Of a stretch of DNA of 45,534 nt, positions 1-45,534 are shown piece by piece. Where the stretch lies: the IMG/VR virus record IMGVR_UViG_3300020058_000046; one strand, 5' to 3'. Both the position numbers and the translations under genes were made by a program. A model generated the notes under the pieces. The model made no database searches. It saw nothing but the letters and a program-made list of their open reading frames with translations, and was not told where the DNA came from. Source of the stretch: a virus. The first letter of the stretch is position 1. Each line of letters starts with the position of its first letter.

Positions 1-99
1 ACGTTCTTGTTGTGACGATACTGCGACGAACCGACCTTGCGTTCTATCTAAGTCCTTTCGCGTTTCGCCGACGATTGATTCAAGACTTCGGACCATTGC
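1..99. repeat. Terminal 99-bp direct repeat, most simply the assembly overlap of a circular or circularly permuted genome
   Basis: Bases 1-99 are identical to 45436-45534. The ATG at 45531 equals the complement of 94-96, so ORF 44608..45531 lies directly downstream of ORF 100..1560 on the closed circle. Confidence 0.95.
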
Positions 100-1560
100 T
101 TACAGACTAACGTTGCCCGATAGACTTAGGGTGACGTATCCGACATCGGTTCGACCGACTGAATACACGACGTATTCACCGTCGATATTTTCAGACGACC
201 ATGTCACCGACAACAGGGTGCCCGGTTCGACCTTCTTGAACCGTTCGTCGGCGACGGTGATTGTGATTGCACCGTCGTCGAACGCGTTGTCTTGCAGGTA
301 TCCGCGTGCCCGCCGTTTTGCCTGTTCGAACGTGCGAATCGACGGGTCGTCTATTGCGTCGGGTTTCGGTGACCGACTGCCATAGAATTCAATCGACTGC
401 GACGATTCAAAAGTTTCCCGTATGTCACCTTTACCCTGTATCGTGACGACGTTTGTGACATTGAAGTCGCGGTCGACTTCGAAGTCGACGACTGCCGGTG
501 TGCCGGCGTCTTCGTCGATTGGAATATCGAACGATTCGGACCCTGACGGCTTGTAGTTCAGTACGTTGTCTTCGTCGACGTACGCCGTGTATCCGTCTTC
601 GGTCGACAGTCTGTCGGCGATTTCAAGAATCGACCCGGTAAGCCGTCGCGTCGTTTCGCCCGATGTCGGCACCACGTTCGTCGTGATATTCGTGTCGCGG
701 TCGACCGTTTCGAACGTGATTGCCGACGCCGAATCTATCATAAAGGCACGTTCGTCGGGTATATTCCCGTCTGTGACAAATTCGTATCGCAACGTGCCGG
801 CAGGGTGGTCGTTGTCGGTCGTGATATCCGCGTCTTCGACCGGCAATTCGTACGTTCGGGTTTCGGCACGACCGGCAAGGGGCAATTCCCACTTGTATTC
901 GACGCCGGCGTCGTCGACAACGTACACGAAGCCGTCGAAGTTATCACCCTTGTCGGCGATAAGAAGCCGGGTTTCGATACGTTCTAAGCGTTTCGCAGGT
1001 ATGCCCGAAAAGTCGGTGTATTCGGCGAAGTATGTGCCTGTACCGCCGGCACGGAAACCGAAGTATAACGCATTGTCACCCACCTGTATCACGTCTGTCG
1101 CCGAATCCATCAATTCGAAGTCTTGCAGGTTGTGCGACCACCCTGTCGTTGTCTGCCCTTCGTGTATCTGTATCGTGTTCTTGTTCGGGTCGGCTTGTTC
1201 GGCGACGGCTTTTTCTATCAATTCCGAATTCGTCACTTCGATAAACGGTCGGTCGACCGTTCCGTATTCTAATGCCGTCGACGACCCTTCGGCAGACACG
1301 GTTAACGTCAGGTTATCTTTCGACGCGTTCGACGGCTTCGACGTGACTTCGCCGACCCAATCTTTCAGGTACACGTTCGGATTATCAGGGTCCGGCGTTT
1401 CGACTGTGACCGTCGCACCGGCTTCGAATAAGTCACGGTTCGGTTGCGTGTTTCCGGCTTCGATTGTGGCTTCGCCGATACCGCCGGAATCTGGTTTATC
1501 GTACGATACGCTAATTACCTGCGTTGCGACCGTTCCGTCGACGCGTACACGGTAAGGCAT
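100..1560 (-). CDS. Tail-tip / baseplate structural protein (putative), 486 aa
   Basis: ATG at 1560 and TAA at 100-102. Acidic product, second gene downstream of the tape measure in the tail module. No diagnostic motif recognised. Confidence 0.6.
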   Translation of the reverse strand: MPYRVRVDGTVATQVISVSYDKPDSGGIGEATIEAGNTQPNRDLFEAGATVTVETPDPDNPNVYLKDWVGEVTSKPSNASKDNLTLTVSAEGSSTALEYGTVDRPFIEVTNSELIEKAVAEQADPNKNTIQIHEGQTTTGWSHNLQDFELMDSATDVIQVGDNALYFGFRAGGTGTYFAEYTDFSGIPAKRLERIETRLLIADKGDNFDGFVYVVDDAGVEYKWELPLAGRAETRTYELPVEDADITTDNDHPAGTLRYEFVTDGNIPDERAFMIDSASAITFETVDRDTNITTNVVPTSGETTRRLTGSILEIADRLSTEDGYTAYVDEDNVLNYKPSGSESFDIPIDEDAGTPAVVDFEVDRDFNVTNVVTIQGKGDIRETFESSQSIEFYGSRSPKPDAIDDPSIRTFEQAKRRARGYLQDNAFDDGAITITVADERFKKVEPGTLLSVTWSSENIDGEYVVYSVGRTDVGYVTLSLSGNVSL

Positions 1561-1575
1561 GGTTGTGTTGTTGTT

Positions 1576-2022
1576 CTAACTGATAAATACGTCTAAGTAT
1601 GTCCATTCGATAGACGCGTCGTACTGTCGTGCCGGTCGTGACGATACGTCTTCGACAAGATTCAGATTCGTGAATACGCCGTTTAGACTTCGCCCGTCGT
1701 AATACAATTCGTCGAATCCGTCTTGTCTGTCCCAACCCCATTCTAACGACGCACGTTCAAGTTCGTTATAAAATCCGTAATCGTCGTCGGAATACGACCC
1801 ACTATTCGGGTAATCCGACGAATCCATACCCTGAATGTCTAAATCAATCTGCCATTGCCGTATATCTAAGACGAACTTGCCACCCAATATTTCACGCGAT
1901 ATTCCCGACACTATCGAATCGGTGACCAACCCGTTCGATACTTCGGTTTCGACACGGCTTGCTTTCAGTACGAATATTTCTGAACCGTCGTTGCGTCGTA
2001 ATTCGACTTCGGTATCTGACAT
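1576..2022 (-). CDS. Tail-associated protein of unknown function, 148 aa
   Basis: ATG at 2022, starting 2 nt after the tape-measure stop. Acidic, with codon usage like its neighbours. The call rests on position in the tail module. Confidence 0.6.
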   Translation of the reverse strand: MSDTEVELRRNDGSEIFVLKASRVETEVSNGLVTDSIVSGISREILGGKFVLDIRQWQIDLDIQGMDSSDYPNSGSYSDDDYGFYNELERASLEWGWDRQDGFDELYYDGRSLNGVFTNLNLVEDVSSRPARQYDASIEWTYLDVFIS

Positions 2023-2024
2023 TG

Positions 2025-4025
2025 TTACCGAACACCCGAACGACTGTTCGTCTTGCGACCGATTGCCTGCGATATCTGTTCGGCGAAGTCTTCAAGTTCG
2101 CGTCTGTTCATGTCTGACGGGTCGAAGTTACCGCCGTCGATGTTTACCGATACGTTTTCGACATTCGTGACTGTCGACCCGGCACCGCCGGCACCTGATT
2201 CGCCATTACTTGCGGCAGACACTATCGGTTCGGGTATCACGGCTTCACCACGGTCGACCACCGCGACGCCGGTTTCCTGAATCATACCGCCGGTGTTCAG
2301 TTGCGGCAAGTCTAACGACTGCCCGCCGATTGTGACTGACATACCACCTGCCCAATCCGGTGCCGACAAAGTCACAGACGGTATCGACACTTCGCCCGGA
2401 ACCACCGAATTGAACGCCGTTCGCACCGACCCGGTCATTGCCGACCCGATGTCTTCGACGAATCCGATTGCTGAACTTGCCATGTCTTCAAAGAAGTCGG
2501 GCACGATAGACGTGACTGTACTGAATATCGACCGAATCGTGTTACCGACCGAACGAACCGTGCCGATTATTCGGTCGAACGCACCTGTAATCGTACCGCG
2601 TACGGCATTGAACGCCGACGACGCAAGACCGCGTACGATACCGAACACGTTGCTTACCACCTGCCGAATGCGATTGAACACACCCGTCACGACGCCGATG
2701 TATGCCTGAATACCTGAACGCAGTACGCCGATTGCAGATTCGAAGACGCCGACGACGCGGTCGAATGCGCCCGTGACTGTACTGACGACGCGGTCGAACA
2801 CACCCGTCACGACGCCGATGTATGCCCGAATCCCTGAACGCAGTACGCCGATTGCCGACTGAAAAACGCCGACGATTCGATTGAACACACCTGCGACTGT
2901 GTTACGCACCCGATTGAACACACCCGTCACGACGCCGATGTATGCCTGCACACCGGAACGAAGGATACCGAACATTCGTCGACCGACGCCGATTATTCGA
3001 TTGAACACACCCGTCACGACACCGATTACGGTATTGAACGCACCGACGAACCGTGATTGTATCGCCGTCACCGCCGTCGCAATCACACCGCGTACCCTGT
3101 TGAAGATACCGACCACGAACGACACGTAATTGTTGAACAATCCGCGTAAGAATGCAAAGCCACTTGCGAACACCGACCGGATACCGCCGACGACACCGCC
3201 GACGAACGACCCGATACGCCGAAACCCGGATACGATACCGCCGATTACGCCGTCGAACAAGCCGGCAATAAAGTCGACTGCACCCATGACGACGCCGACG
3301 ACCCGGTCGAATTGCCGTTGCCATGACCCGATAAATATGTTCATAATCTGTGTTGCCCGGTCGATTGCACCACTAAACCCGTCTTCGAAAAATCCGATTA
3401 TCAAGCCACCTAACGCGGCAAGTGGTGCAATGAATATCGACATAATCTGCAAGATTCCGTCTTTCACGAATCCGGGCAGTATTCCGGCGACGAATTCGCC
3501 GAATCCCTTGATTGCGTCTAAGGCACCCGTGACGTGTAAAATCCATGCACCGAACAACCCGATTGCGGCACCGATTGCACCGGCGACTGCAAGGGCACCC
3601 GCCGACCCTGCCGCAAGCCATGCCGCAAAACCCTTCAAGGCACCAATTACCGACCCGACGATTCCCGAAAGCGAAAGACCACTTAGGGCACCCGTGACTG
3701 TACCGATTGCACCTGACAGGGTCGACATGATACCACCCAATCCGGCAAGACCCGCAATATAGGCACCGACCGACGCAATCGCCGACGTAATCGTACCACC
3801 CAACAGACGCGTCTTGTTGTCCATGATACCCGTCTGTCGACCCGTCTGTTCGGCTTCGTCGCCGGTGTCTTGAATGACGCCGGTAAACCCACGCATTCGA
3901 CCCGATGTCGATTCCGTCGTTTCACCTAACCGTTCTTGCGATTCCTGTAATTCCTGCGTCTTTTCGGTGGCTTCGTCGGCACCCGTGACTTTTGCTTGAT
4001 ATTCTATCGTTCCAATCTGAACCAT
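2025..4025 (-). CDS. Tail tape measure protein, 666 aa
   Basis: ATG at 4025. Long Gly/Ala/Ile-rich hydrophobic segment followed by 40-aa tandem repeats (AYIGVVTGVFNRV...). Lies between chaperone-like ORFs and tail-tip genes. Confidence 0.85.
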   Translation of the reverse strand: MVQIGTIEYQAKVTGADEATEKTQELQESQERLGETTESTSGRMRGFTGVIQDTGDEAEQTGRQTGIMDNKTRLLGGTITSAIASVGAYIAGLAGLGGIMSTLSGAIGTVTGALSGLSLSGIVGSVIGALKGFAAWLAAGSAGALAVAGAIGAAIGLFGAWILHVTGALDAIKGFGEFVAGILPGFVKDGILQIMSIFIAPLAALGGLIIGFFEDGFSGAIDRATQIMNIFIGSWQRQFDRVVGVVMGAVDFIAGLFDGVIGGIVSGFRRIGSFVGGVVGGIRSVFASGFAFLRGLFNNYVSFVVGIFNRVRGVIATAVTAIQSRFVGAFNTVIGVVTGVFNRIIGVGRRMFGILRSGVQAYIGVVTGVFNRVRNTVAGVFNRIVGVFQSAIGVLRSGIRAYIGVVTGVFDRVVSTVTGAFDRVVGVFESAIGVLRSGIQAYIGVVTGVFNRIRQVVSNVFGIVRGLASSAFNAVRGTITGAFDRIIGTVRSVGNTIRSIFSTVTSIVPDFFEDMASSAIGFVEDIGSAMTGSVRTAFNSVVPGEVSIPSVTLSAPDWAGGMSVTIGGQSLDLPQLNTGGMIQETGVAVVDRGEAVIPEPIVSAASNGESGAGGAGSTVTNVENVSVNIDGGNFDPSDMNRRELEDFAEQISQAIGRKTNSRSGVR
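2670..3050. repeat. Tandem ~120-bp (40-codon) repeats inside the tape measure gene, about 3 units
   Basis: The string cacccgtcacgacgccgatgtatgcc recurs at about 2690, 2810 and 2930, with a degenerate copy near 3010. The translated repeat is GVVTGVF[ND]R..(x)..AIGVLRSGI[QR]AYI. Confidence 0.85.
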
Positions 4026-4088
4026 TGTTACCTGAAAACACGGTGTCCGACCGACTTATGCGTACGGTGCCCGACGCGGTCGACGCCG

Positions 4089-4607
4089 TCAGGGTCGGTT
4101 ATTCTGTTGATTCGCCCGCCGGCGTTGTCGTTTCCGTTCTTTTTCGCGTTGCTCTTGTTCGTACTTCTTGCGTTCTTGCACTATCGCAAGCCGGCGTCGG
4201 AATTCGTCGCCGGTCATGCCGTCACTTCGTATCTTGCCGACCTTGTGCGTATCCGGCGGGTCGGTGAACACGGAATCGGGTGCCCGGTTCGCACCGGTTG
4301 CGACGCCGGCACAGACGACGGCAAGTATGCCGACCGTGACGGTGCCCGTGAACGCCGTGACGACGGCACACGCGACTGCCGCGACTGCCGACGCCGATTG
4401 CACCTGCCGACGACCGAACGCCGACAAGACGCGTCTGACTGTCGCAGTCGCGTCGTGTCGTGTCTGTGCGATTGCGACGGTTCGGTCGACGCCGTGTATA
4501 TCCTGCCGCGTCACACCTTCGTCGTGCAATAGTTGTTCGCCGATTTCACGGTGTATTAGTAGGTCGTCGGCGTCTTGCGGGCGACGACCACGTATCGCCC
4601 GCGTCAC
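4089..4607 (-). CDS. ORF in the -1 frame overlapping the end of the chaperone-like gene (gpT-like position); TM helix plus basic tail, 172 aa
   Basis: GTG at 4607 overlaps the TGA of 4604..5038 (GTGA). Its frame is open back to 4718. It sits directly upstream of the tape measure. Expression mode is unresolved. Confidence 0.45.
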   Translation of the reverse strand: MTRAIRGRRPQDADDLLIHREIGEQLLHDEGVTRQDIHGVDRTVAIAQTRHDATATVRRVLSAFGRRQVQSASAVAAVACAVVTAFTGTVTVGILAVVCAGVATGANRAPDSVFTDPPDTHKVGKIRSDGMTGDEFRRRLAIVQERKKYEQEQREKERKRQRRRANQQNNRP

Positions 4608-5038
4608 ACGTTTAATTCGGCTTCGTCGATGTCGGAAACCGGCGGTGGCACTTCGTTTTGCAGTTTTTCGAACACCGGATTTCCGACTTCGTTTCCGGTC
4701 GGTGCCTTTGTCAGTAGTTCACGAATGCCGGGTGCGTCAGGGTCGTCGGCACCGGACCAATCGACGACCATGTATTCAAGCATATCAATATAATAATCGT
4801 TCGACACCTTCGTACCCTGTTCGGTCATGGTCGCATTGTCTTCTAACACGTTGCCCTTCTTACGCACCGGCACCTGTTCGCGCAATTCGAACCACCATTT
4901 AAGTTCGCGTTCGTGGTCGACGACCCACACAACACGCGTCGACGAATCGTCGGCGATTGCGTCGTCGGCAGTACCTAATTCGTAATCCGCGACATCTTCG
5001 GGTGGTTCGGGCACCTTGTCAGGTGTGTCGTCAGACAT
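4604..5038 (-). CDS. Tail assembly chaperone (gpG-like position), 144 aa, acidic
   Basis: ATG at 5038 with a TATA (TTAATAC) 26 nt upstream. Lies between the tail tube gene and the tape measure. Confidence 0.55.
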   Translation of the reverse strand: MSDDTPDKVPEPPEDVADYELGTADDAIADDSSTRVVWVVDHERELKWWFELREQVPVRKKGNVLEDNATMTEQGTKVSNDYYIDMLEYMVVDWSGADDPDAPGIRELLTKAPTGNEVGNPVFEKLQNEVPPPVSDIDEAELNV

Positions 5039-5080
5039 ACCACACGGTTCGTCGATATTGGGTATTAACGTGTCGGTGCC
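5039..5080 (-). promoter_or_regulatory. Archaeal promoter for the tail operon
   Basis: Minus strand reads CCGACACG-TTAATAC, then about 26 nt, then ATG(5038). It matches the CGACAC(G)+T/A-rich box consensus seen at at least 10 other starts in this genome. Confidence 0.6.
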
Positions 5081-5151
5081 CGGTCGACCGTGTCTGCACA
5101 GTCGTCTTTGTCGGTGCGAACGACGGGTGTGTAAGTAACTGTCGCCGTAAT

Positions 5152-5400
5152 ACTATCAGGTACAGTACCGATACGCCCATATACACAGTTTCGATTCTAT
5201 GCCGTCTAAGCGGTCGCACAGTCGGTTTGAATTTTCGCCGACCCATACCACCTATTCATTTTTCAAACGGATTCGGCAAGTTCGGACTCTGTACTTGCCG
5301 ATATCCGGCGTTTCGGCAAAATACATGGGTACTTAAAGGCACCCGCCGATATTACCCTGTATCAGACTGCGTAAACAAAACGCGTCGGGTCCGGCGTCGG
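5152..5400. repeat. Long intergenic repeat, copy A (paralog of 26843..27089)
   Basis: About 250 bp aligns with copy B with scattered substitutions. Contains GCGTTTTGTTT, a TTTAAGTA TATA-like box and a hairpin CGGCAAGT-N11-ACTTGCCG. Confidence 0.85.
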
Positions 5401-5549
5401 TCGGTGCCTGTCGGTGCCTGCACAGTCGTCGTCAGAAACGGCACAGTCGGTCGTGACGCCGTCGCAGTCGAACGTGCCCGATTGGTCGGACCCTGTCGGC
5501 GACGACTGCACGCGCGTCGCACGTCGGCACGCACACCCTGCCGTGTCGA
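5401..5549. repeat. Phased-repeat boundary element, copy 1 (most diverged)
   Basis: Directly follows the stop of 5550..6482. Shares ctgcacagtcg..gtcagaaacggcacagtcggtcgtg..ccgtcgcagtcg.acgtgcc with the copies at 17809, 27090 and 36466. Confidence 0.8.
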
Positions 5550-6482
5550 TTACACCGTCGTATCCGGCACCCATTCGATGTATCCGGTATCGGGCACTAT
5601 CGTAATGCCGACTTCGGGTGACCCTTCGTCTGCCATTGGGTGACCGGCTTCGGTGAATCCGATTTTGTCGAACGTGAATGTCAGTTTTTGATTTTCGCGT
5701 TCGAATGCGATACTTGCTGTACCGGCGTCGTCACGACCGATTAGGTCTTGATAAAGTTGGTCGTCTGACGGTGTAATCGTCGCCGACACTTCGTGGTCGG
5801 CGTTTCCGAATGGGATTTCAAACGGGTCTTGCGCGTCGCCGTCGTGAATGTAGTGTCGCGGATTCACGTTGTTCGATAATTCCCATTCGAAGTCTGTGAC
5901 CCGTGCGTACGACGTGCCTGCAAGGGACAGGTTCGACTGTGCGTCATGGAATAACCACGGTGACCCTGACGCGGCAGACACGTCGGTCGGCGACGACCCG
6001 GTCGTGACACCTTGTGCGATGAAATCAAGGTCGACCGTAAGCCGTGATTCGTTGTCGACCGATATGGTGCCGGCGTCGGGTGCGTTTCCGACGAAGGTAC
6101 GCACGAAGTCGGATTGTGACCCACCCGTGCCGTAATATGTGGCTTCGACGGTCATGGTACGCGGCAATGCCGCGTTGTCGACTTCGATTTTACCCGACGA
6201 TTCGTCTTGCCCGAACAGAAATTCGAACGGTGTAAGGTCGACGGGTATGACGGTTAAAGAACCGCCGTCGTATGCGTTTTGACCCGGTTCTTTGCCTGAT
6301 AGTTCGCGGCTTTCGGCACCGATTGTTCTTTCCTCTTGCCATTCGACTGTTGGGTCAGGCATATCGCCGGCGTCGACGATTTTGCCTAACGTTGTGTCCG
6401 GCGTCACCGACACACCGTGGTCAGATTCGAAACCAACCGCAATCTGTGCGTTGTGCCGTGTGAACGGTGGTTGTGCCGACAT
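5550..6482 (-). CDS. Major tail (tube) protein, 310 aa
   Basis: ATG at 6482. Size, position (after connector genes, before chaperones) and sequence style fit siphovirus tail tube proteins. Confidence 0.65.
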   Translation of the reverse strand: MSAQPPFTRHNAQIAVGFESDHGVSVTPDTTLGKIVDAGDMPDPTVEWQEERTIGAESRELSGKEPGQNAYDGGSLTVIPVDLTPFEFLFGQDESSGKIEVDNAALPRTMTVEATYYGTGGSQSDFVRTFVGNAPDAGTISVDNESRLTVDLDFIAQGVTTGSSPTDVSAASGSPWLFHDAQSNLSLAGTSYARVTDFEWELSNNVNPRHYIHDGDAQDPFEIPFGNADHEVSATITPSDDQLYQDLIGRDDAGTASIAFERENQKLTFTFDKIGFTEAGHPMADEGSPEVGITIVPDTGYIEWVPDTTV

Positions 6483-6527
6483 ACACGTCGATATGTGAAC
6501 GACTGACTTAACGGTTCGTCGCCCGGT

Positions 6528-6974
6528 TCAGGTTTCGACGTTTCGACTGCGACTTTCGAATGCGATTACGACTTCGTGCAGAAACGCACCGAACGCGTTG
6601 TCGTCTAACGGCGTCACGTCTTCGAATATCATTCGGTCGTGGTCACCCGGTGTATCCGGGCGTTTCCGGTGCGATTCGATTATCCGTCTGAATTCGTCGA
6701 ATAGGTCGTCGCGTCGTTGTTCCGACGACGACTTGATTTCAACAAAGACGACGGTGTCGATGTCTTGCGTCGACATGAATAGGTCGGAATACGATATGTC
6801 GACCGGCGACGTAATCGACACTTCGATGTAATCGTACGTGCCGATGTCCCTGCCCTTGCCGATACTGTCTGACTTGTCGATAATCAGGTTTCGTCGTGGT
6901 ACGTTGTTACTGTCCCAATTGTCGTCTAACAACTGTACGACCGCGTCGGTCATGTTCACGTCTGGTTGTGTCAT
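6528..6974 (-). CDS. Tail terminator / tail completion protein (putative), 148 aa
   Basis: ATG at 6974, abutting the stop of 6975..7550 with no gap. Last small gene before the tail tube gene. Confidence 0.45.
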   Translation of the reverse strand: MTQPDVNMTDAVVQLLDDNWDSNNVPRRNLIIDKSDSIGKGRDIGTYDYIEVSITSPVDISYSDLFMSTQDIDTVVFVEIKSSSEQRRDDLFDEFRRIIESHRKRPDTPGDHDRMIFEDVTPLDDNAFGAFLHEVVIAFESRSRNVET

Positions 6975-7550
6975 TCACGAATCACCATCTTCGAAGGTGG
7001 TTTCGCCGTCGCGTTGTACCACGACGAAACCTGATTGCAGTAAGGTGCCCCTGTCTGTGGCTTCGTCGGCGACGATGTCTTGTGACTGTTGAAACGCGAA
7101 GTCGAACGTATCTTCGAATATCTTGCGTGCCGCGTCAGGGTCGTCGGTGCCTGCGTACGATTCGGCGAATTGTTCGGCGGCTTGTTTCGCGGCTTCGAAA
7201 CCGCGTCGCAACATGAAGACGCCGTCGGTGCCCGTCGCGGCAATCGACGATACGACCACCCATGCAACCGCGTCTTTGTGTTCAGGTGAACCGGGCGTAA
7301 TGTTCGTCGATTCGCCGTCTTCGTTCGTCAGGGGCACGTCTTTCAAGCCACCGTCTAAGTCGTCCCATTTTCTGTCGACCCATTCGCGCAACGGTTCGAA
7401 CGGTGGTTGCGTGCCGGTGTATTCAGTCGGGAATTCGACGTATGCCGCGTATTCGGCGGTGTACCCAACCTTCGCAACCACCTGCAAGTTACTGAATAGT
7501 TCGTCTAACTTGCCCGTGTCGAACGATACCGTCACGTTTGCGTCGGTCAT
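6975..7550 (-). CDS. Head-tail joining protein, HK97 gp10-like, 191 aa
   Basis: The motif AEYAAYVEFPTEYTGTQPPFEPL resembles the gp10-family A.yA..vE.GT....PF signature. ATGA overlap with the upstream gene. Confidence 0.55.
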   Translation of the reverse strand: MTDANVTVSFDTGKLDELFSNLQVVAKVGYTAEYAAYVEFPTEYTGTQPPFEPLREWVDRKWDDLDGGLKDVPLTNEDGESTNITPGSPEHKDAVAWVVVSSIAATGTDGVFMLRRGFEAAKQAAEQFAESYAGTDDPDAARKIFEDTFDFAFQQSQDIVADEATDRGTLLQSGFVVVQRDGETTFEDGDS

Positions 7551-8374: not shown

Positions 8375-8439
8375 ACCGGCAGGTACACCGTCGCGGTACT
8401 TAGGGATTCGTCGCCGGAAAAGAAGTCTGCCCGCGTCGT

Positions 8440-9594: not shown

Positions 9595-10818
9595 TTACTG
9601 CCCGACATTGTAGTGATACCGAATGCGCGAAGTCGACGACACGGCAAGGGTGCCGTAACTGTCGATTGCCATGTCTTCTTCGGGCGTCGTTCGCGCAAGT
9701 GGGTGAATCGTCGCGTCTTGTAGCATTGGCATGACGGTTTCCGACATATCAAGGGTCACCACGACCCTACTGCCGTCGGAATCAGGGGCACCGTGCGTTT
9801 CCATGACCGGCGTACCGTCAATGTTCAATGCCTGAAAGCCGAAGTCGACGGTGTCGCCCGGTGTGTCGTATCGCAGTACGTCGTCGACATCGTCTTTCAA
9901 GTCACCAAACACCGTATGGTCGACAAGGGTGACGATGTCGGCGTAATCGGCACCGCGTCGTCGCAGGTATTCGATGTCTTCGCGGATTTTCGACGTGCCG
10001 TACGTACCGCCGGATTCGGTGATAAGTTGGTCGGATTCGGAACGCACGACATCAGGCAAGCCGGGAAAACTGTTCGTGTCGAAACCGGACAGGTTCGACG
10101 CGTCGCCGTTGCCCCTGATTACCTGATTTTCCTCATAGAACCGTTGCGACCGCATTAGGCTTTCCTCTGTGATTGCCTGCGACGACCGTAACGTCTGTGC
10201 CGCAAGTTGCAGGAAATCGGTCACCGAAGTCTGCCGACCGTACGGCACGACATTGTACGAATGCGTGTCGAAGGTGTCGTCGGCTTCGACCCACGTTTCG
10301 TCTGTACCGCCGTTCGTACCCGGTTCGTAATACCGTTCGGCTTGCCCGTGGTCCGTCTGTTCGTCGACATTGTATTCGTCTGACTGTATCGCCGTGCGTG
10401 CCACCATGTCGGCAAACGGTGTCTGCCGTTCGTCGGTGACTGTGACATCGGGCGACACGAAAATCGGCAGACTGAACGACGGTCGGTTTATCTCTTTTGC
10501 GACCGTTTCGACTGCCGACCGAACCGACGCACCCTTGCGGATTGCCGCATTGAAGATGTCGTACGCGTCGGACCACACGGCGTCGTACATCTTCTTTTTC
10601 AGGTTCGTCGGGTCACCGCCGTTTTGGAAACCGAACGGGTCGTAATACAGCACTTCGTCACCGGGCAAGCCGGTGTTCTTTTCGACGACTTCGTGCAGGT
10701 TACTGAACGAAGCCGCGTACGCGTCGATTCGTTCTTTCTTGCTGATTCGACCACCGCGTCGACCACTTGCCTTTACGACTTCGGAACGCACCGGCGTTTC
10801 AGGGTAATCGTTTCGCAT
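9595..10818 (-). CDS. Major capsid protein (HK97-fold type), 407 aa
   Basis: ATG at 10818, 3 nt after the protease/scaffold stop. Size and order (portal, protease-scaffold, this gene) are typical for the major capsid protein. Confidence 0.8.
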   Translation of the reverse strand: MRNDYPETPVRSEVVKASGRRGGRISKKERIDAYAASFSNLHEVVEKNTGLPGDEVLYYDPFGFQNGGDPTNLKKKMYDAVWSDAYDIFNAAIRKGASVRSAVETVAKEINRPSFSLPIFVSPDVTVTDERQTPFADMVARTAIQSDEYNVDEQTDHGQAERYYEPGTNGGTDETWVEADDTFDTHSYNVVPYGRQTSVTDFLQLAAQTLRSSQAITEESLMRSQRFYEENQVIRGNGDASNLSGFDTNSFPGLPDVVRSESDQLITESGGTYGTSKIREDIEYLRRRGADYADIVTLVDHTVFGDLKDDVDDVLRYDTPGDTVDFGFQALNIDGTPVMETHGAPDSDGSRVVVTLDMSETVMPMLQDATIHPLARTTPEEDMAIDSYGTLAVSSTSRIRYHYNVGQ

Positions 10819-20567: not shown

Positions 20568-22079
20568 TTACCGTTTCGACACCGTCGACCCTGACGACCC
20601 TGACGACGACCCACGCAACGAATCGGTATATATCGCATACCGTAAACTGTCGACCGCGTGGTCGTCGGCGTCTTTCGCACCGACATCGTCTTCGGTGTAC
20701 GACAGTAATTCACTTATCAGATTTTCACATTCGGTACTGACAAGTAACCCGTACCTGTCTTCGTGGTCGGCACGCAGTCGGTGTTTCACTTCGTCGATTC
20801 CCGCGTCGATGTCCTTTTCGGCTTTGCCTGCCGGATACCCTGACGGTGGGTCGTCGATATTCGTTAGTGCCGGCTTTCGGAACTTGCGGATATCGCCCGG
20901 TTCGTGTTCGCAATAGATTCGACCCGACGGCTTACTGCCGTCACCCAACCACCTGATTGCGTCGGCGACGTGCGTGCCCGATTCGTAAAATTCGTCGACA
21001 ACGACGTACTGCCCGTACGACGACCGGGCGATTTCAAGCAAGACACGCGGGTCGGACCAACCCGCGTCGTACCCGTATATCCGGTGCGTGCCGGATATCG
21101 TCACGCGGTCGGTTGGGTTTCCGTCGTCGTCGACTGACGTGTACCCGCCGTCGTCTGTCTGCACAAGGTCGACGACGTGTGCCTGCCGACTGAACGGAAA
21201 GACTTGCCCTTCGGCACTTTCGAACGCACCGTGTAATGCCTGTTGGGATTGTTTCGACTGCCCGTGCGTTCGACGTAATCGTGCCTTGTCGTCGGCAGTC
21301 AGAAACGGATTATTTAGTGACGACGCCGTTATCAGTTTCACCGATTGCCCGATTGGATTGCCGTACGCGTCGACCCGTCGTTCTAAGATGTCGTGTGCCG
21401 GATTCAAGCCGTTGCCTGTCGTCGTCACAAGCATAACCTTCGGTTTCCCGAAGTCGAACCGTTCGGTCACCGTCTTGCGAATGCCGTGTATCTTGTCCGT
21501 GTCGTAATGCGCGAATTCGTCACACCACGCGAAGGAAAACGACCCGCCGTCGTACCTGTCCGACTTGTCTGCCGACGCAAGTATCACCGTCGAATCCGTC
21601 GCCGTCGTCAGGATACCGTCTTGTTTCGACCACGACTTGATTACCGGCGAATTCGTCGGGTCACCGTCGTACAGAAACGGGTCGACCTTTTCGGCAGGGG
21701 CACCCGGCAGTTGTTCGAACAGTACCGGGTACGTCGTCTTTTTGGCTTCGGCGTACGTCTTGCCCATTGCTAACGACCGCGTCTGTCCGAACGAATCGTC
21801 TAACGCAACCTGCCATGTGGCACGGGCACCCGTCACCGACTTGCCTGAACGAAACCCGCCGACCAACCCGACGATGTCGTAATCGCCGGAATAGACTGCC
21901 CGGAACGCGTCGACTTGCGGTTTCCAAAATGCCCATTTGACCGACAGACTGCCACCGACCGACTGTTCGACGACGCCGTCGTGTCGCAACCTGTCGACTT
22001 CGTCGTCGGCAAGGTCGTCGACGCCGTCGGGAACGACCAACTGCGTGCCGTCAGGTGCCGATATTGTCGATACAGACAT
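20568..22079 (-). CDS. terL: Terminase large subunit, 503 aa
   Basis: Walker A-like VGGFRSGKS, Walker B-like FAWCDEF, and a C-terminal nuclease-type half (...DHAVDSLRYAIY). ATG at 22079. Confidence 0.9.
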   Translation of the reverse strand: MSVSTISAPDGTQLVVPDGVDDLADDEVDRLRHDGVVEQSVGGSLSVKWAFWKPQVDAFRAVYSGDYDIVGLVGGFRSGKSVTGARATWQVALDDSFGQTRSLAMGKTYAEAKKTTYPVLFEQLPGAPAEKVDPFLYDGDPTNSPVIKSWSKQDGILTTATDSTVILASADKSDRYDGGSFSFAWCDEFAHYDTDKIHGIRKTVTERFDFGKPKVMLVTTTGNGLNPAHDILERRVDAYGNPIGQSVKLITASSLNNPFLTADDKARLRRTHGQSKQSQQALHGAFESAEGQVFPFSRQAHVVDLVQTDDGGYTSVDDDGNPTDRVTISGTHRIYGYDAGWSDPRVLLEIARSSYGQYVVVDEFYESGTHVADAIRWLGDGSKPSGRIYCEHEPGDIRKFRKPALTNIDDPPSGYPAGKAEKDIDAGIDEVKHRLRADHEDRYGLLVSTECENLISELLSYTEDDVGAKDADDHAVDSLRYAIYTDSLRGSSSGSSGSTVSKR

Positions 22080-24651: not shown

Positions 24652-24828
24652 TCACCGTTTGGATACGAACGACCCGCCGTCGTACCTGTCTTCGTCTGTG
24701 TACGACCCACACACCGGGCATTCGTACATCGTCTTCGGACCACCGGGCGACGGCACTTCGGTTCGGTGCAAGCCGACGTGCCCGCAATCGACGCATTCGA
24801 CATCGTACGTATCGCCGGCGTCACTCAT
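24652..24828 (-). CDS. Zinc-ribbon protein, 58 aa
   Basis: ATG at 24828 inside the conserved GGTGGTTCGAATGAGTGA linker. Contains CVDCGH...x19...CPVCG. Confidence 0.65.
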   Translation of the reverse strand: MSDAGDTYDVECVDCGHVGLHRTEVPSPGGPKTMYECPVCGSYTDEDRYDGGSFVSKR

Positions 24829-34716: not shown

Positions 34717-34774
34717 GGTTGTTCGGTGGGTCCGAATTGCGGGTCGGATACCCGCCGACCGCGTGGTCGGAAAG

Positions 34775-34857
34775 TGGCACCTGCCGGATTCGAACCGGCG
34801 AAGTCCTGCGACGCACGGTCTTAAGCCGTGTGCAGTCGACCACTTTGCTAAGGTGCC
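34775..34857 (-). tRNA. tRNA-Leu (anticodon UAA), class II, 83 nt, no encoded CCA
   Basis: Acceptor GGCACCT/AGGTGCC. D stem GCA/TGC with GG in the loop. Anticodon stem CACGG/CCGTG with loop CTTAAGA. 14-nt variable arm. T arm GCCGG-TTCGAAT-CCGGC. Discriminator A. Confidence 0.85.
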
Positions 34858-35175: not shown

Positions 35176-36339
35176 TCAGTTGTCGTCGGTGTCGTTTTGG
35201 TCGTGATACGCCGGCACGACGCCGGTTGCGTCGTCGACGATTGCGTCGATTAGGTCGTCTGTGTCCGGTGTCGCACCGGCGTCGACTTCGTCGCGGTTCG
35301 ACGCAATCACCTTCAAAGCGTTGTAATTCAGTACGCCGTCGACTGCCGCGTCGAACGACTGTCGACGAACCTGTCGGTCGATGTCGTCACGACCGAATTG
35401 CACGGTTAACCCTGACACGTCGCCGTGCCCGTCGTCGTCGGCGACTGTGACCGTCGCGGTGTCGAAGTCGGTGCCGTCGACCGCGTCGTCTGTGCCGGCG
35501 TCAGGGTCGTCAGACGCGTCGTCACCGCCGTCGCCGTCGTCGGTGGTATCGTCGCCGGTGTCGCCGTCGAAGTCAGACAAGGCTTTGTGTGCCTTTGCAG
35601 TCGCGTCGTCGTCTGATATCGGTTCACCACGGTCGACGATATCAAGCCGACCCGTCTTCGCAAAGTCGACTGCCCATTGCGGGCAGTCAGGGTCGTCGGG
35701 CGTTGCCCGCGTTCCGGTCGTGAACACGCACCGCGTCAGGTAACTGTACCCGATAATCGCCGGTCGGTTTTCACCTGCACCGTGTGGGTGAATTATCCAT
35801 ACACGGGTACGCAACGGTTCGATTACCGGCGGTTGTTGTTTCGACGACACGGGAATTCGAAGGTTCAAGCCGCGTTCACGGCATTCGTCGATGTAATCTT
35901 CGGGCGTTTCCCAATTGCTCTTACCCACGGACATCAATAGGTCGATTGCCCGCGTCGACGTGATATCGCCGAAGTGTGACCCGTCGAAGCCGAACCGCGA
36001 CAGTCGGTCGATATGGTTGGGAATGTCGTCAGACGGTGTCGTCGTACCACCGTCGGCAATGTAGTGCAGACTGAACGCGTTGCCCGGAAACGGTCGGTAT
36101 CCGGGTATAATCGCACCTTTGCCGGTGTATTCCTTGTATTCGACCGGGTCGTCTAATTCGACGAATCGTGGTATGTCGCCGTCAGGTGCCGAAAGTGCAG
36201 ACACGTCACACCTGACGTAAGCCGCGTTCGGTTTCAAGTGCCCGCAACCGCGTTCTTTGTTGTCGATTGTTTCGCGTTCGTCGTCGGGTATGCCTTTTTC
36301 TAACTGTTCGTCGACGGCTTGCCGCAAGGGGTTGGTCAT
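35176..36339 (-). CDS. Unknown replication-module protein with a C-terminal HeH/SAP-like motif, 387 aa
   Basis: ATG at 36339 behind a TTTTATAC box. N-terminal ERGCGHLKPNAAY motif. Asp-rich linker. C-terminal YNALKVIASNRDEVDAGATPDTDDLIDAIV. Confidence 0.75.
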   Translation of the reverse strand: MTNPLRQAVDEQLEKGIPDDERETIDNKERGCGHLKPNAAYVRCDVSALSAPDGDIPRFVELDDPVEYKEYTGKGAIIPGYRPFPGNAFSLHYIADGGTTTPSDDIPNHIDRLSRFGFDGSHFGDITSTRAIDLLMSVGKSNWETPEDYIDECRERGLNLRIPVSSKQQPPVIEPLRTRVWIIHPHGAGENRPAIIGYSYLTRCVFTTGTRATPDDPDCPQWAVDFAKTGRLDIVDRGEPISDDDATAKAHKALSDFDGDTGDDTTDDGDGGDDASDDPDAGTDDAVDGTDFDTATVTVADDDGHGDVSGLTVQFGRDDIDRQVRRQSFDAAVDGVLNYNALKVIASNRDEVDAGATPDTDDLIDAIVDDATGVVPAYHDQNDTDDN

Positions 36340-38405: not shown

Positions 38406-39407
38406 ATGTCAGGTGCAAAAACCGACCCGCCGACCCTTCGCCGTCTTGCCGATTCCGTCGGCTTCGACGACGGTGATATCGACTTCGCCGAACAGTTAGA
38501 CGACCAACTGCCGAACGACGGTGGTTTCGCCGACCGTGACGCCGGTATCGTGTACGCCGTCGCGCGTATCAATAACGTGCCGATTCGACCCGGCGAAGTC
38601 GCCGACGCGTCGCAGTACGACGATGTCGACGCCGATACTGTCGTGAACGACACGCGACGTATCGCCGACACTATGCCCTTCGACTTACACGTCGACGACC
38701 CGTCGGCGTTCGTAAAACGATTCGTCGACGACGTATCCGATGTCTGCCGGGTGCCCGACGGTTTCCGGCAGACTGCCCTTCGTCTGTGTGCCGACGCAAC
38801 GAACGCCGGCTTGCAGTCAGGTAAGTCGCGTTCCGGTTTTGCCGCGTCGGTCGTGTACGCGGCTTCGGTCGTCACCGACGCCGATATCGGGCAATACGAA
38901 GTCGCCGACATCGTCGACGTGTCACCCGTAACAATCCGAAACCAGTACCGACCGATTATCGACTGCACCGACGAACACGATTGGACAATGCACGACGCCG
39001 ACGACTTGCCCGAACTTGTCGACGCAATCGCCGACGACATCGACCGCGTACCTGACGACGTGCGTGACGACGCGGTCGGCGTCGCCGAATCAGTCGTCGC
39101 CGACGAACCGGAATTCGTCACGTCGACGAAGGTGACCGGAACCGCCGGCGGTGTCTTCTATGTCGTTGCTGAACGACACCGTTTCGACGTTTCCATGCAA
39201 GAAGTCGCCGATACCGCCGGCGTCAGTAAGCATACAGTCGTTGCCCGTGTTCACGACGTGCGTGATTACTGCCGTCGCGTTCAGTACCGAACGATGAATT
39301 ACAACCGTCTGAAAGAACTTGCCGCGTCGCACGACCTTGATGTCGGCACGACGCCGGCGAAGTCAGACATCGTCGACGCGTTAGTTCGCAACAAAATCGA
39401 CGCATAA
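38406..39407 (+). CDS. TFB/TFIIB-like protein (two cyclin repeats, no Zn-ribbon or B-reader) with an extra HTH and a C-terminal HeH/SAP-like motif, 333 aa
   Basis: LQSGKSRSGFAASVVYAASVVTDADIGQYEVADIVDVSPVTIRNQYRPI matches the TFB second-repeat signature (sGrsP..lAAAalY.As......tQ.evA....VtevTIRNrY.e). The first repeat has RDAGIVYAVARINNVPIRPGEVA. There are no Cys pairs at the N-terminus. An ATG at 38364 is an alternative start. Confidence 0.7.
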   Translation: MSGAKTDPPTLRRLADSVGFDDGDIDFAEQLDDQLPNDGGFADRDAGIVYAVARINNVPIRPGEVADASQYDDVDADTVVNDTRRIADTMPFDLHVDDPSAFVKRFVDDVSDVCRVPDGFRQTALRLCADATNAGLQSGKSRSGFAASVVYAASVVTDADIGQYEVADIVDVSPVTIRNQYRPIIDCTDEHDWTMHDADDLPELVDAIADDIDRVPDDVRDDAVGVAESVVADEPEFVTSTKVTGTAGGVFYVVAERHRFDVSMQEVADTAGVSKHTVVARVHDVRDYCRRVQYRTMNYNRLKELAASHDLDVGTTPAKSDIVDALVRNKIDA

Positions 39408-41672: not shown

Positions 41673-42146
41673 ATGTCTTCGACAAAGGGTGACAGGTGGG
41701 AAAGAAATTATCGAAACGCGTTGTGTGCAACTGATTCCGAAGCCGACGCCGACGACATCGACCGCGTCGGTGTCGATAGTGTCGACGCCGTCGAACCGTT
41801 CGTCGCCGTTCGTATGCCGTCGTCAGGGTCGGCGACACGCGAAGACTTGCCCGACTTGCACGTCTGGTATGTTTCCGGGTCGGTCGTTCGGGAATTCGCC
41901 GTCGAAGTGAAAGCCGGTCGTGACAGGGTTAGATTGGATAATTCCGAAGTACCTGCACTTCGTCGGTATGCTGATTCGACCGCGTCTGAACCAATCGTGT
42001 TCGTACATATTGATTACGTCGGCGACTTCGTCGTGCCCGTCGACGACCTACACAGTACCGATAAAGGGTACACGTTCACCGAAAGTCGTGACGCCGGCGA
42101 CGCCGTCACATTCGCCGAATGGGTGCAGTCTGTGCCGACTGTTTAA
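41673..42146 (+). CDS. hjc: Holliday junction resolvase, archaeal Hjc-like, 157 aa
   Basis: KGDRWERNYRNAL...AVRMPSSGSATREDLPDLHV...FAVEVKAG...VRLDNSEVPAL fits the Hjc pattern G...E......L...G..v.R...SG.....PD..a......EvK. Confidence 0.7.
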   Translation: MSSTKGDRWERNYRNALCATDSEADADDIDRVGVDSVDAVEPFVAVRMPSSGSATREDLPDLHVWYVSGSVVREFAVEVKAGRDRVRLDNSEVPALRRYADSTASEPIVFVHIDYVGDFVVPVDDLHSTDKGYTFTESRDAGDAVTFAEWVQSVPTV

Positions 42147-43000: not shown

Positions 43001-43074
43001 ATCTGTGCGTTGTCGCCGTCATGCAATAGTCCTTTGCGAACGACCGTTTGAATAATCCAGATTGCGACATAGTT

Positions 43075-44577
43075 TTATAATTTAACGATATCGTCGAAGT
43101 AACAAATTGCCGTGTCATCACTAAACAAGGTCAGATTTATTCCCCAATCGTCGCGGTCATTAATAGATGGGGAAATATTAAGTGTTCCTACATTCACACC
43201 CGAATTATTTTGCACACGTAGTTCGACGGCACCAGATACAAAATCAAGACTGTACTTGTACCATTCAGGGTGGGATAAGCCGGGATTCAAACCGTTAGAT
43301 GTAGTTACTTGCGACCCGTCCCAATGCCTAAGAAATATTTCATCTCTGCCTTGAATATTCGCTGATAACCGACAGTCGACGTTTTCACTTGTTGATTCTG
43401 CACGCACCTGAAATACTGCGACAGGTCCAGCGTTCGGGTCGATGTGTTTTACCCACCATTCGACTGTGTCACCTTCTTGTGGGTAAATCGGCAATCCGTC
43501 ACCCGGAAAAGAACCTGCAGCCGGCGAATCATTGGCAGAGTTATTACTCTGTTCCATGCCGAACGACCCGGTCTTTGCCGCGTCACTTGTTACGTCGACA
43601 TACGCCGACCCGCCGACATCAGATAATGAATATTCCGACAAGTCGCCGTCTTCAAAGTCGTCGATTGTTTGTATTGCGGATACCGTCACCGTCGACACGG
43701 CAGTATCGTCGTCGGCAGTTAATCGCGCGTCGTAATCTTGTGCCGTTGTCGACGATTGCGTCGACCATGTCCATGTGTCCGATACTGTTGTGTTCGGTGA
43801 CACCTGCGAAAAGAAGACTGAATCTTCTTGTGTGTATGCCGATTCGGAATCATTGAAGGGTTTTATTTCAAGGGGCACAGTCACGTCGCCGGTGCCGTCG
43901 CCGTTGTTCGACAAGTCGCCGTCGACGGTAAGGTCGGACCCTTGCACGACCGGCGAATTCGTGCCGGTGATTGTGATTGCGAAGTCAGGGGCAACGATGT
44001 CGGTGGTCGTCGTGTCGGTGTCGTCGTCGGAATTGATACGCAAGTCGTACGTTCCGGTATCGGCATTACTGTCGACGAACCACGACCATGTGAACGACTT
44101 TGTGTCACCGGGTTGTATGTCACCTTCGCCGATGAATACGGACCCTTCTTGTGCGTATTCCGATTCGGATTCGGTCGATTTTTTCACTTCTAAGGGTATG
44201 CTTTCCGATGTCGCGGCAAAGTCGGCGTCGTTCGTCACGTCGGCATTCACGTCGACGGTTTCACCGGGTTGTGCCTGTTGTGTTCGGCTTGTAATCGTAA
44301 TCAGGTACACACCCGTCGCGTCGGTCACCGTTTCCGTCACCGCCGGCGTCAGGGGCACGTTCACCGTCTGTACTGTGCCACCGACGCCGAACGATTCGGT
44401 TACTGCCGGCGTTAGGTCGACCGTGATATTGTCCGATATGACATCGGCAATCGACGTTTCGGTCACACCCGGCGTTAACTGCACTTCGACGGCACCGGAT
44501 TCGAACCTGTCGACAAGGTCGGCGTCACGGACCACGCGCAACCGTTCTAACTTCGTCGATTCAAGCAAGTTCGACAT
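43075..44577 (-). CDS. Tail fibre / receptor-binding protein: two Ig-like (CARDB-type) repeats plus a C-terminal lectin/jelly-roll-like domain, 500 aa
   Basis: Internal repeat PLEVKKSTESESEYAQEGSVF...TKSFTWSW vs PLEIKPFNDSESAYTQEDSVF...VSDTWTWS. The last ~160 codons (43075-43560) are visibly AT-richer. Confidence 0.65.
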   Translation of the reverse strand: MSNLLESTKLERLRVVRDADLVDRFESGAVEVQLTPGVTETSIADVISDNITVDLTPAVTESFGVGGTVQTVNVPLTPAVTETVTDATGVYLITITSRTQQAQPGETVDVNADVTNDADFAATSESIPLEVKKSTESESEYAQEGSVFIGEGDIQPGDTKSFTWSWFVDSNADTGTYDLRINSDDDTDTTTTDIVAPDFAITITGTNSPVVQGSDLTVDGDLSNNGDGTGDVTVPLEIKPFNDSESAYTQEDSVFFSQVSPNTTVSDTWTWSTQSSTTAQDYDARLTADDDTAVSTVTVSAIQTIDDFEDGDLSEYSLSDVGGSAYVDVTSDAAKTGSFGMEQSNNSANDSPAAGSFPGDGLPIYPQEGDTVEWWVKHIDPNAGPVAVFQVRAESTSENVDCRLSANIQGRDEIFLRHWDGSQVTTSNGLNPGLSHPEWYKYSLDFVSGAVELRVQNNSGVNVGTLNISPSINDRDDWGINLTLFSDDTAICYFDDIVKL

Positions 44578-44607
44578 ACCTGACGACAGGGTCGGCAGGT
44601 GGTTAAA

Positions 44608-45531
44608 TTATTGCACCGTGACTTGTGCCTGCGTGACGAAACCACGGTCGTCGACTGTGATTGCGTGACTGTTGGCAAGCCACACAAGCCGGTTCGAATC
44701 GTCGTGAACACCCACCTGTACGATGTCGTACGGTGACCCGCCGGATACCGCCGAATCCGGCACAGACGCCGTCACGACGACAGACGTGCCGTCATGTGCC
44801 ACCGTCACCGACTGCCGCAAGACTTCATTCGGCAGTTGGTCGTAATCCTGTATCGTATCCTGCGTGTCGGAATACACGAATGCACGGAACGGGTCGGCAG
44901 GATTGGTCGACACGACCGCGTCGGCAATCTGTTCGAACGCGTACGGTGCCACCCATTGCGACGTACCACGGGCACGACCCGATATCGTGACTTCGGTTTC
45001 GAATTTTACGTCGTCGTTCGACGGGTCGACGCCGGTTGCGTCGAAGACTTCGCGTGTAAGCAAGGCACCGCCGTCGTCGATAATGCCGACTTCGTACCCG
45101 TTGTCGATGTACGACGGTGCCGCAATCGGGTCGGATTCGACGCGTACGTTCTTACCCGTCGCCGATACCGTCGCCGACACGTCGCCGGTCTTGTTGCTTA
45201 GTGTCGTGTCTGTCACGTCGGCGTCGTCGCCGGTGCCGTCACCGTATGCAATCTTGTCGGGCACCGACCCGTCGCCCGCCGTCGAAGCCGCGACAAGTTC
45301 ACGACCGCGTCGCGTCGATACCACCGACGACCGTGTCTGCCCGACTTCGGTGAACGGGTCGGTCGTGCCCGACGGTCGTGTGAATAGTGTCGTGTCGACA
45401 TCTAACTGCACGTACTGCCGACCATAGAACCGGGCACGTTCTTGTTGTGACGATACTGCGACGAACCGACCTTGCGTTCTATCTAAGTCCTTTCGCGTTT
45501 CGCCGACGATTGATTCAAGACTTCGGACCAT
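44608..45531 (-). CDS. Tail-tip / baseplate protein, 307 aa
   Basis: The ATG at 45531 lies in the terminal overlap. On the circle it follows 100..1560 with a 3-nt gap. Confidence 0.6.
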   Translation of the reverse strand: MVRSLESIVGETRKDLDRTQGRFVAVSSQQERARFYGRQYVQLDVDTTLFTRPSGTTDPFTEVGQTRSSVVSTRRGRELVAASTAGDGSVPDKIAYGDGTGDDADVTDTTLSNKTGDVSATVSATGKNVRVESDPIAAPSYIDNGYEVGIIDDGGALLTREVFDATGVDPSNDDVKFETEVTISGRARGTSQWVAPYAFEQIADAVVSTNPADPFRAFVYSDTQDTIQDYDQLPNEVLRQSVTVAHDGTSVVVTASVPDSAVSGGSPYDIVQVGVHDDSNRLVWLANSHAITVDDRGFVTQAQVTVQ

Positions 45532-45534
45532 TGC
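45436..45534. repeat. Second copy of the terminal 99-bp overlap
   Basis: Identical to 1-99. Confidence 0.95.

Follow-up and report, generated by a model that had tools for sequence, protein, structure and literature searches.

The purging of restriction-modification (R-M) motifs by haloviruses has been documented for words of 4–6 nucleotides (PMC7911831, PMC7230728, PMC8651126). The subject of the present analysis is IMG/VR virus record IMGVR_UViG_3300020058_000046, a 45,534-bp stretch of DNA that was analyzed over its full length (hereafter, the window), from which the trinucleotide GAG and its complement CTC are nearly absent, together with a set of longer words. The window resembles the described cases of halovirus restriction-site avoidance (Hardycor1, the HF1 group, and the arTVs) in the complete loss of words of the CTAG, GATC, AGCT, and TGCA type, in the virus-specific composition of the word set, and in the absence of a cognate methylase when the motif is purged. 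For Hardycor1, a virus of Halorubrum coriense, the original description is limited to tetramers, namely an absence of AGCT, CTAG, and TGCA and an avoidance of CAGC, CATC, and CCAG (PMC7911831), the latter three being shared by the window. However, the published analyses end at 4–6-mers, whereas the word lost here is a 3-mer with ~900 expected sites, purged throughout a whole clade and against halovirus codon preference, and a second 3-mer, CAG/CTG, has been lost in most relatives of the window. The marks of restriction-site avoidance are found in that the words are under-represented against both composition- and codon-aware null models, the set varies among relatives, and no cognate methylase accompanies it.

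Natural nickases with 3-bp sites exist in chlorella viruses, i.e., Nt.CviQII (R^AG), paired with M.CviQII, and Nt.CviPII (^CCD) (PMC3017599). Their ~3-bp non-palindromic specificity, the overlap of the RAG core with GAG, and the small per-site cost of a nick are features that they have in common with the present case. However, they are encoded by viruses of eukaryotic algae whose own DNA is protected by methylation, in which the window differs; AAG is not avoided in the window (observed/expected ratio, O/E, 0.93), so that a comparable specificity here would be GAG or SAG. No domain of such a nickase–methylase pair was detected in the 52 open reading frames (ORFs) of the window, which is a weak negative as many of them are unannotated.

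Phosphorothioate (PT) modification by the haloarchaeal DndCDEA-PbeABCD system marks GpsATC, with 1–3% of sites modified (PMC6459918). PT systems combine a very short consensus (3–4 nt) with an occurrence in haloarchaea, and an initial annotation of the window, made from its sequence alone, had named them as a precedent; the idea fits GATC, which is absent from the window, but GAG/CTC matches no reported PT motif. The motif of the bacterial Ssp system is CCA, and CCA/TGG is mildly low in the window (O/E 0.34). In vertebrate viruses, CpG and UpA are suppressed, as these dinucleotides are sensed by ZAP and similar factors. This suppression likewise involves genome-wide codon recoding to drop a very short immune-sensed word; however, it acts on a dinucleotide at the RNA level, in eukaryotic hosts, and amounts to 2–5-fold, while the loss in the window is at the DNA level, on both strands, and amounts to 40–70-fold. 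A search of the open-access literature retrieved neither a purge of the GAG or CAG trinucleotide nor an archaeal enzyme with 3-bp specificity.

Depletion of short words in the window

Exact counting located GAG at three positions (37929, 40903, and 43538) and CTC at 19 (4152, 5287, 6333, 8145, 10132, 10165, 10492, 11817, 12556, 12737, 14697, 15078, 24824, 24879, 28661, 34377, 35918, 43344, and 43547). The total of 22 compares with 905 ± 24 in dinucleotide-preserving shuffles and ~1612 predicted from base composition. The same shuffles predict 243 ± 14 GATC and 112 ± 10 GGCC, of which 0 and 2, respectively, are present. CTAG and AGCT are also absent, each with ~23 copies expected by a first-order Markov model and ~18 by a second null model, in which synonymous codons were shuffled within each gene while the proteins and codon usage were kept. 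The initial annotation had described the absence of GATC, CTAG, and AGCT and only about twenty GAG/CTC, and the counts agree, including all five positions that it quoted (CTC at 4152, 6333, 24824, and 28661; GAG at 37929). It had placed two residual sites in the AT-rich 3' end of the fiber gene, where there are actually three, and its word list, correct for the words named, was incomplete, as GGCC and many 4–6-mers such as GGACG, GTGGA, and CCCCG are also avoided. The depletion lies far beyond both the Markov and the codon-shuffled expectation, and the avoidance is real, stronger, and wider than first reported.

Under the synonymous shuffle, the further avoided words, observed versus expected, are GGACG (2 vs 249), GTGGA (1 vs 118), CCCCG (0 vs 107), CGCCA (2 vs 90), GGAAG (2 vs 81), AGGCG (0 vs 82), CTACG (1 vs 78), GCATC (0 vs 65), CACTG (0 vs 64), GGATG (0 vs 59), and GACGTC (0 vs 56), together with CCAG (12 vs 190), CAGC (16 vs 135), and GCGC (31 vs 130). 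As a separate feature of composition, TCGA is ~5-fold over-represented (801 vs 166 expected) and CpG has an O/E of 1.77, a pattern noted in the window and in all loci of its clade.

The depletion follows neither frame nor strand nor coding status. Off-frame, the synonymous shuffle predicts 165 GAG and 244 CTC, of which 9 and 2 occur; within genes, GATC is found 0 times against 132 predicted and GGCC once against 150. The null model is sound, since the cultured haloviruses HHTV-2 and BJ1 show no depletion in the same test, with observed counts near or over expectation. In the 5.9 kb outside called genes, GAG is found 0 times (98 expected) and CTC twice (110 expected). The codon-level regularities of the initial annotation hold almost without amendment: Glu is encoded by 737 GAA and 10 GAG; Leu CTC, described as unused, is used once; and Asp before TCN is GAT in all 47 cases and never GAC, as in the four Asp-Ser peptides that had been cited, all of which exist and are encoded GAT TCN, whereas elsewhere GAC prevails (1299 vs 164 GAT). 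GAT is followed by C in none of 252 cases, NCT by C in none of 212, and CGA by G in none of 225, though 45% of codons begin with G; in the last case, CGC (121) and CGT (103) are used instead. Words are thus eliminated through whatever synonymous substitution is available, transversions included, which disfavors a mutational process, and the off-frame, both-strand, and intergenic depletion places the constraint on double-stranded DNA. We conclude that selection acts at the level of double-stranded DNA, independently of frame, strand, and coding status. Avoidance of a Shine-Dalgarno-like GGAGG, suggested by the low counts of GGA, GAG, and AGG, was rejected because the coding strand is equally poor in the complementary words; avoidance of UV-sensitive dipyrimidines was rejected because TC is enriched while CT is depleted.

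The residual sites are themselves informative. In-frame GAG codons account for 10 of the 22, and six of these are the first codon of a GAG-GAA (Glu-Glu) pair in conserved structural proteins (6333, 10132, 10165, 11817, 14697, and 15078). Only 8 Glu-Glu dipeptides occur against ~42 expected from Glu frequency; the remaining two pairs are encoded GAA-GAA, and the hexamer GAAGAA/TTCTTC, common in relatives, is present just twice in the window. GAG thus appears as the lesser evil where it collides with GAAGAA, a sign that the cost of a single site is small. A further three residual sites are ATG-AGT starts, two of them in the repeated gene junction AATGAGTGA and the third at 12556–12560. The CGAG context is represented in 0 of the 22. 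Matches to rare words number 15 in the kb around the 3' end of the fiber gene compared with ~2 per kb elsewhere; this segment, from which the purge is absent, is probably a recent, un-ameliorated import, i.e., an exchanged receptor-binding domain.

The purge carries a cost. GAG makes up 81–84% of Glu codons and CTC 57–60% of Leu codons in cultured HHTV-2 and BJ1, so the clade avoids the codons that these viruses prefer. In aligned orthologous columns, Glu is reduced to 6.9–7.0% in the window vs 8.7–9.0% in non-purged outgroups and Leu to 5.7–5.9% vs 6.7–7.6%, while Asp is raised to 9.6–10.6% vs 7.9–8.3%; Gln is lower in CAG-purged relatives. With CTC excluded, TTA/TTG account for 272 of 635 Leu codons. 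The swap of GAG/CTC for GAA and TTA/TTG lowers the G+C content, which is therefore a poor guide to the host. The window carries a tRNA-Leu(UAA) gene and the CAG-purged relative L009 a tRNA-Gln(UUG) gene (38–109, + strand), compensating tRNAs that each read the substitute codons forced by the purge.

Relatives and cultured haloviruses

Assemblies in IMG/VR, JGI, ENA, and Logan, representing at least 12 samples, yielded the relatives, whose O/E values are zero-order unless stated. GAG/CTC is depleted in all of them down to 54% identity of the major capsid protein (MCP), usually at an O/E of 0.02–0.12, with 0.3–0.5 in partly relaxed lineages and 0.01 in the window. It is normal in HHTV-2, an HHTV-2-like contig (48% identity), BJ1, HCTV-2, and HRTV-DL1, as well as in groups with a terminase large subunit (TerL) identity of ≤47% and in distant low-GC capsid relatives. 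By these sequence comparisons, the GAG/CTC purge is a trait of the clade. CAG/CTG is likewise depleted in all relatives (0.02–0.36, mostly 0.02–0.16) and independently of frame, the window being exempt at 0.70. The palindromic 4-mers toggle independently: GATC and CTAG are at expectation in L006 and L012, CTAG is in excess in L007, and CATG is absent from several relatives vs 90 copies in the window. The k-mer comparison with related viruses that the initial annotation had proposed has therefore extended its claim to a clade-wide GAG purge, an additional CAG/CTG purge, and several context units.

The latter emerge from three relaxed lineages, of which L029 is the closest long TerL relative (72% identity), and L005 and L010 branch within the purged clade (L005 in a neighbor-joining tree of the capsid), yet have relaxed GAG. 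All three show GAG at 0.3–0.5, the survivors being almost exclusively CGAG[A/C/T], with GGAG and GAGG at or near zero; most of the CAG still present in L029 is CCAG[A/C]. Two or more context units that can be separated therefore make up the purge, unless a single agent with flank preferences lies behind it. The purge is under active maintenance and is not a passive relic. Shielding of the surviving CGAG by TCGA methylation was rejected, as NCGAG is found with any N.

Three observations concern individual relatives. In L029 (ENA ERZ10759792 NODE_372, 1–15638), GATC is 3.5-fold over-represented (192 vs 54 expected), and TGCA, CTAG, and AGCT are absent. L025, a purged relative, carries a Dam-type methylase (PF02086) at 890–1732 and has kept GATC (45 vs 77 expected), which fits the published rule that a motif is either methylated or purged. 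A clade member (L008/L018) lies on a contig named SL_4KL_010_BRINE; if the name denotes soda-lake brine, the clade would not be confined to neutral salterns.

Two cultured haloviruses, Hardycor1 and HHTV-1, likewise display a frame-independent, strand-symmetric trinucleotide depletion with survivors in one flank context; however, the depletion is weaker (4–10-fold), the word sets differ, and the viruses belong to other families. Re-analysis of Hardycor1 (L033, MT152698) revealed an O/E of 0.24 for CAG/CTG, with 19 off-frame occurrences vs 128 expected; nearly all CAG contexts are depleted, the survivors being essentially all GCAGG, and GGAG, GCATC, CACTG, and GGATG are depleted as well. The words avoided by both Hardycor1 and the clade of the window thus comprise CCAG, CAGC, most CAG contexts, GGAG, GCATC, CACTG, GGATG, AGCT, CTAG, and TGCA. 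As Hardycor1 is an unrelated virus, this overlap in sequence favors a common pressure from outside, on the side of the host, and is suggestive of hosts resembling Halorubrum.

In HHTV-1 (L038 and L036, NC_021322), CAA/TTG is found at 0.10, GAC/GTC at 0.21, and GAG/CTC at 0.21 of expectation; these words and CTA/TAG are reduced 5–10-fold in all frames, surviving GAG is limited to CGAGG, and Asp is GAT in 582 cases and GAC in 46 (93% GAT). In the 15-kb stretch L036 of this genome, GATC is 5-fold over-represented, and the same stretch contains an annotated Mom-like modification gene. A k-mer survey has merely flagged HHTV-1 as an outlier (PMC7962313), and no description of the trinucleotide purge of either virus was found in the open-access literature searched.

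The virus and its genes

The window has a G+C content of 57.8% and ends in identical direct repeats of 99 nt, which identify it as a complete genome, circular or terminally redundant, of ~45,435 bp (Table 1). Its sequence assigns it to an uncultured haloarchaeal siphovirus (tailed, Caudoviricetes): an HK97-type capsid module, terminase, and portal have haloviral relatives, and the archaeal placement is supported by TFB-, PCNA-, and Hjc-like genes, alongside which an XkdF-type protease and a tail tube were detected. TerL is 37–39% identical to those of the Halorubrum viruses BJ1, Humcor1, and HRTV-28 and of HSTV-1. A nucleotide-level search of a phage collection with the window found no match, and scans of viral contigs with the TFB, a 189-aa protein, and a 1053-aa protein returned no relatives.

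Table 1. Coordinates of the features discussed in the text
Feature	Position	Strand	Remarks
Depleted words	1..45534	.	GAG/CTC near-absent (22); GATC, CTAG, AGCT 0 each; GGCC 2; ~15 more avoided 4–6-mers
Terminal direct repeat, copy 1	1..99	+	Matches 45436–45534
MCP	9595..10818	-	46% identity to HHTV-2; 54–80% to uncultured relatives; clade-defining
Two GAG-GAA pairs in capsid motifs YEEN and TEES	10132..10167	-	Conserved
TerL	20568..22079	-	38% identity to Halorubrum virus BJ1; 52–72% to clade members
Gene junction retaining GAG	24821..24828	-	Upstream stop overlaps ATG-AGT start of next gene; repeated at 28658–28665
PCNA-like gene	33919–34716	-	
tRNA-Leu(UAA)	34774..34857	-	Reads TTA/TTG
387-aa protein, fold unknown	35176..36339	-	Conserved across clade; candidate viral agent; homologues also in HHTV-1, HRTV-25
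TFB-like transcription factor	38406..39407	+	Archaeal hallmark
Hjc-like gene	41721–42146	+	
Fiber gene 3' end	43057..43550	-	Gene 43075–44577; AT-richer, GC ~48%; 3 of 22 residual GAG/CTC and 12 other near-forbidden words
Terminal direct repeat, copy 2	45436..45534	+	Matches 1–99

The 52 genes were called with an iterative codon model and are rough. ORFs of at least 100 aa number 168, many of them antisense to real genes; this surplus may arise because the composition yields few stop triplets, TAG being rare. Approximately 60% of the called ORFs lack a functional assignment, among them those encoding proteins of 1053, 567, and 387 aa. Pfam, PHROGs, and PADLOC, together covering all 52, detected no methyltransferase or restriction gene, a weak negative as many ORFs are unannotated, and the only matches with a bearing on nucleases or modification were the Hjc-like resolvase and an ASCH domain. 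Sequence searches of the PDB with the 1053-aa and 567-aa proteins gave zero matches. The 387-aa protein contains the invariant motifs RGCGHL and RTRVWxIHP and adjoins PCNA both in the window and in HHTV-1; having homologues in other haloviruses, it is not clade-specific. Its AF2 model (confident, pLDDT 80) had no fold match in the PDB, and its sole viral match was HHTV-1 gp52.

A promoter-like element of ~60 nt is present in seven copies on the minus strand, with the ATG at 38305, 29232, 26799, 25947, 24346, 19842, and 9228 and the pattern ..TTTATACACGGGTATGCAAGTAsGGGT-ATG GTG CGA CAC ACC.. The seven ORFs behind it begin MVRHT(D/A/T).., several terminate in ..GGSQ or ..GGSNE, and they are probably co-regulated early genes.

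Causes of the purge and their implications

The explanation that we favor, with modest confidence, is that host defenses targeting short sites on DNA, probably several of them, act as long-term selection at the DNA level. In terms of mechanism, this lineage of uncultured haloarchaeal siphoviruses has been under long-term purifying selection against very short double-stranded words, and the agents would be sequence-specific defenses of the host, i.e., R-M-like nucleases or nickases, with GATC possibly marked by the haloarchaeal PT system too. Their joint effective specificity would reach down to 3 bp, and the GAG purge would probably add up from two or more units (CGAG and DGAG/GAGG), if it is not produced by one agent with flank preferences. 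Each site may impose a small additive cost, e.g., through nicking or occasional cleavage ahead of protection, which would make ~900 sites removable stepwise and GAG tolerable where GAAGAA is the sole alternative. Differing word sets among relatives would correspond to different host strains, and the toggling of palindromic 4-mers is as expected of patchy host R-M repertoires. The lack of a methylase or restriction gene among the 52 ORFs points to passive avoidance rather than self-methylation, and the imported fiber segment, which still contains forbidden words, supports selection. Known enzymes recognize GATC, CTAG, AGCT, GGCC, GGATG, GCATC, CACTG, and GACGTC; we know of none for bare GAG. 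Of the causes proposed in the initial annotation, selection on double-stranded DNA is well supported, the host identity of the agent is what we infer, and a mutational process is disfavored by the CGA-G result and the transversions.

Several points weigh against a host origin. To our knowledge, 3-bp recognition has not been described for any enzyme encoded by a prokaryotic host, and the open-access archaeal R-M survey and methylome papers searched contain no example. Two scans of 185,579 genomes, one using the capsid alignment and the other that of the 387-aa protein, detected no provirus. HHTV-1 and HHTV-2 both grow on Haloarcula hispanica, and the trinucleotide purge is present in HHTV-1 only; Hardycor1 and the HF2 group both grow on Halorubrum coriense and differ completely in their purges. 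With viruses of the same host differing in this way, a purely host-driven model needs extra assumptions. Furthermore, a classical, efficient restriction enzyme facing 900 sites would leave no stepwise route to the purge, and a GAG purge kept across relatives that face different R-M repertoires could also be explained by a virus-encoded cause that is passed on vertically.

Such a cause would be a frequently cutting nuclease or nickase, made by the clade and recognizing a GAG (or SAG) core; it would break up the GAG/CTC-rich chromosome of the host, serving shut-off and the recycling of nucleotides, while the virus would be protected by the absence of sites rather than by methylation. The sole natural 3-bp nucleases that can be cited, Nt.CviPII (CCD) and Nt.CviQII (RAG), are indeed viral (PMC3017599), the purge is inherited across the clade and differs among viruses sharing a laboratory host, the ORFs of unknown function leave room for an agent, and haloarchaeal DNA is rich in GAG and CTC, so that the weapon would be effective. 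We nevertheless regard this as rather unlikely, since the domain searches detected no nuclease beyond the Hjc-like resolvase, the modeled 387-aa protein has no nuclease-like fold match and is present in other haloviruses too, the 22 residual sites would be self-targets, and the genome would have to be near-clean before the enzyme became tolerable, which makes for a hard evolutionary start; the avoidance of many of the same words by the unrelated Hardycor1 also points to an external cause. Alternatively, promiscuous host methyltransferases or other modifiers of 3–4 bp may mark viral DNA, which Mrr-like Type IV nucleases of the next host would then attack, so that loss of the words keeps the DNA unmarked. 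In Halorubrum coriense, a Dam methylase is accompanied by two Mrr genes, and many Halobacteria possess orphan methylases (PMC7911831); the reference list of PMC3017599 gives AG as the specificity of M.CviQII, which shows that methylases with sites this short exist. An additive per-site cost would arise naturally from such marking, which would also explain avoidance amid patchy R-M systems in the community. However, no haloarchaeal GAG or CAG methylase appears in the literature searched, where reported motifs are 4–6 bp or longer, and the sequence offers nothing to separate this quite unlikely variant from direct restriction.

Erosion of the word without selection, either by deamination of methyl-cytosine in CTC, analogous to CpG decay, or by an APOBEC-like deaminase, would account for the enrichment of the C-to-T products, with CTT/AAG ahead of all other trinucleotides in their excess over Markov expectation (1.86 and 2.0) and GAA/TTC at 1.25. 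It is very improbable, as sites at which transitions would alter the protein are purged equally, by the third-position transversions described above, and loss is not concentrated where transitions are tolerated, for which reason deamination decay of both kinds was rejected. Moreover, a 40–70-fold depletion is far over known mutational decay, the proteins remain conserved, palindromes and many unrelated 5-mers are purged simultaneously, and relaxed lineages regain one context only. The chance that ordinary codon or translational preference, or an assembly or sequencing artifact, underlies the pattern is practically negligible. The extreme in-frame use of GAA and the tRNA carried by the virus would suit codon preference, but off-frame and non-coding depletion is equally strong on both strands, cultured haloviruses prefer exactly the avoided codons, and codon-shuffled genomes do not reproduce the depletion, so that a bias of sense-strand, in-frame codons is refuted; as for an artifact, the purge recurs in independent assemblies of the relatives from JGI, ENA, and Logan.

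Motif avoidance is used to infer which defenses a virus has faced and is normally scored for 4–8-bp sites only. The price of the purge in the present clade comprises the loss of preferred Glu and Leu codons, a shifted protein composition, and the requirement for an additional tRNA. Attempts to predict the host of such viruses from G+C content, codon usage, or k-mers will be unsuccessful, and gene callers face many spurious antisense ORFs in their genomes. As HHTV-1 and Hardycor1 are culturable and carry weaker purges, the effect is experimentally accessible. We tentatively consider, as a possibility well short of an even chance, that an undescribed DNA-targeting system of hypersaline archaea or their viruses recognizes a bare trinucleotide (GAG, with a sister activity for CAG) and has forced these lineages to recode. 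If true, this would be the shortest specificity of any prokaryotic defense or offense system, and the existence of a single 3-bp agent would put the case in a new category. The lesson may thus be that the cumulative pressure from short sites in hypersaline communities is far stronger than assumed or, alternatively, that these viruses have responded to an undescribed ~3-bp agent, which would be of interest both for the biology of defense and as an enzyme.

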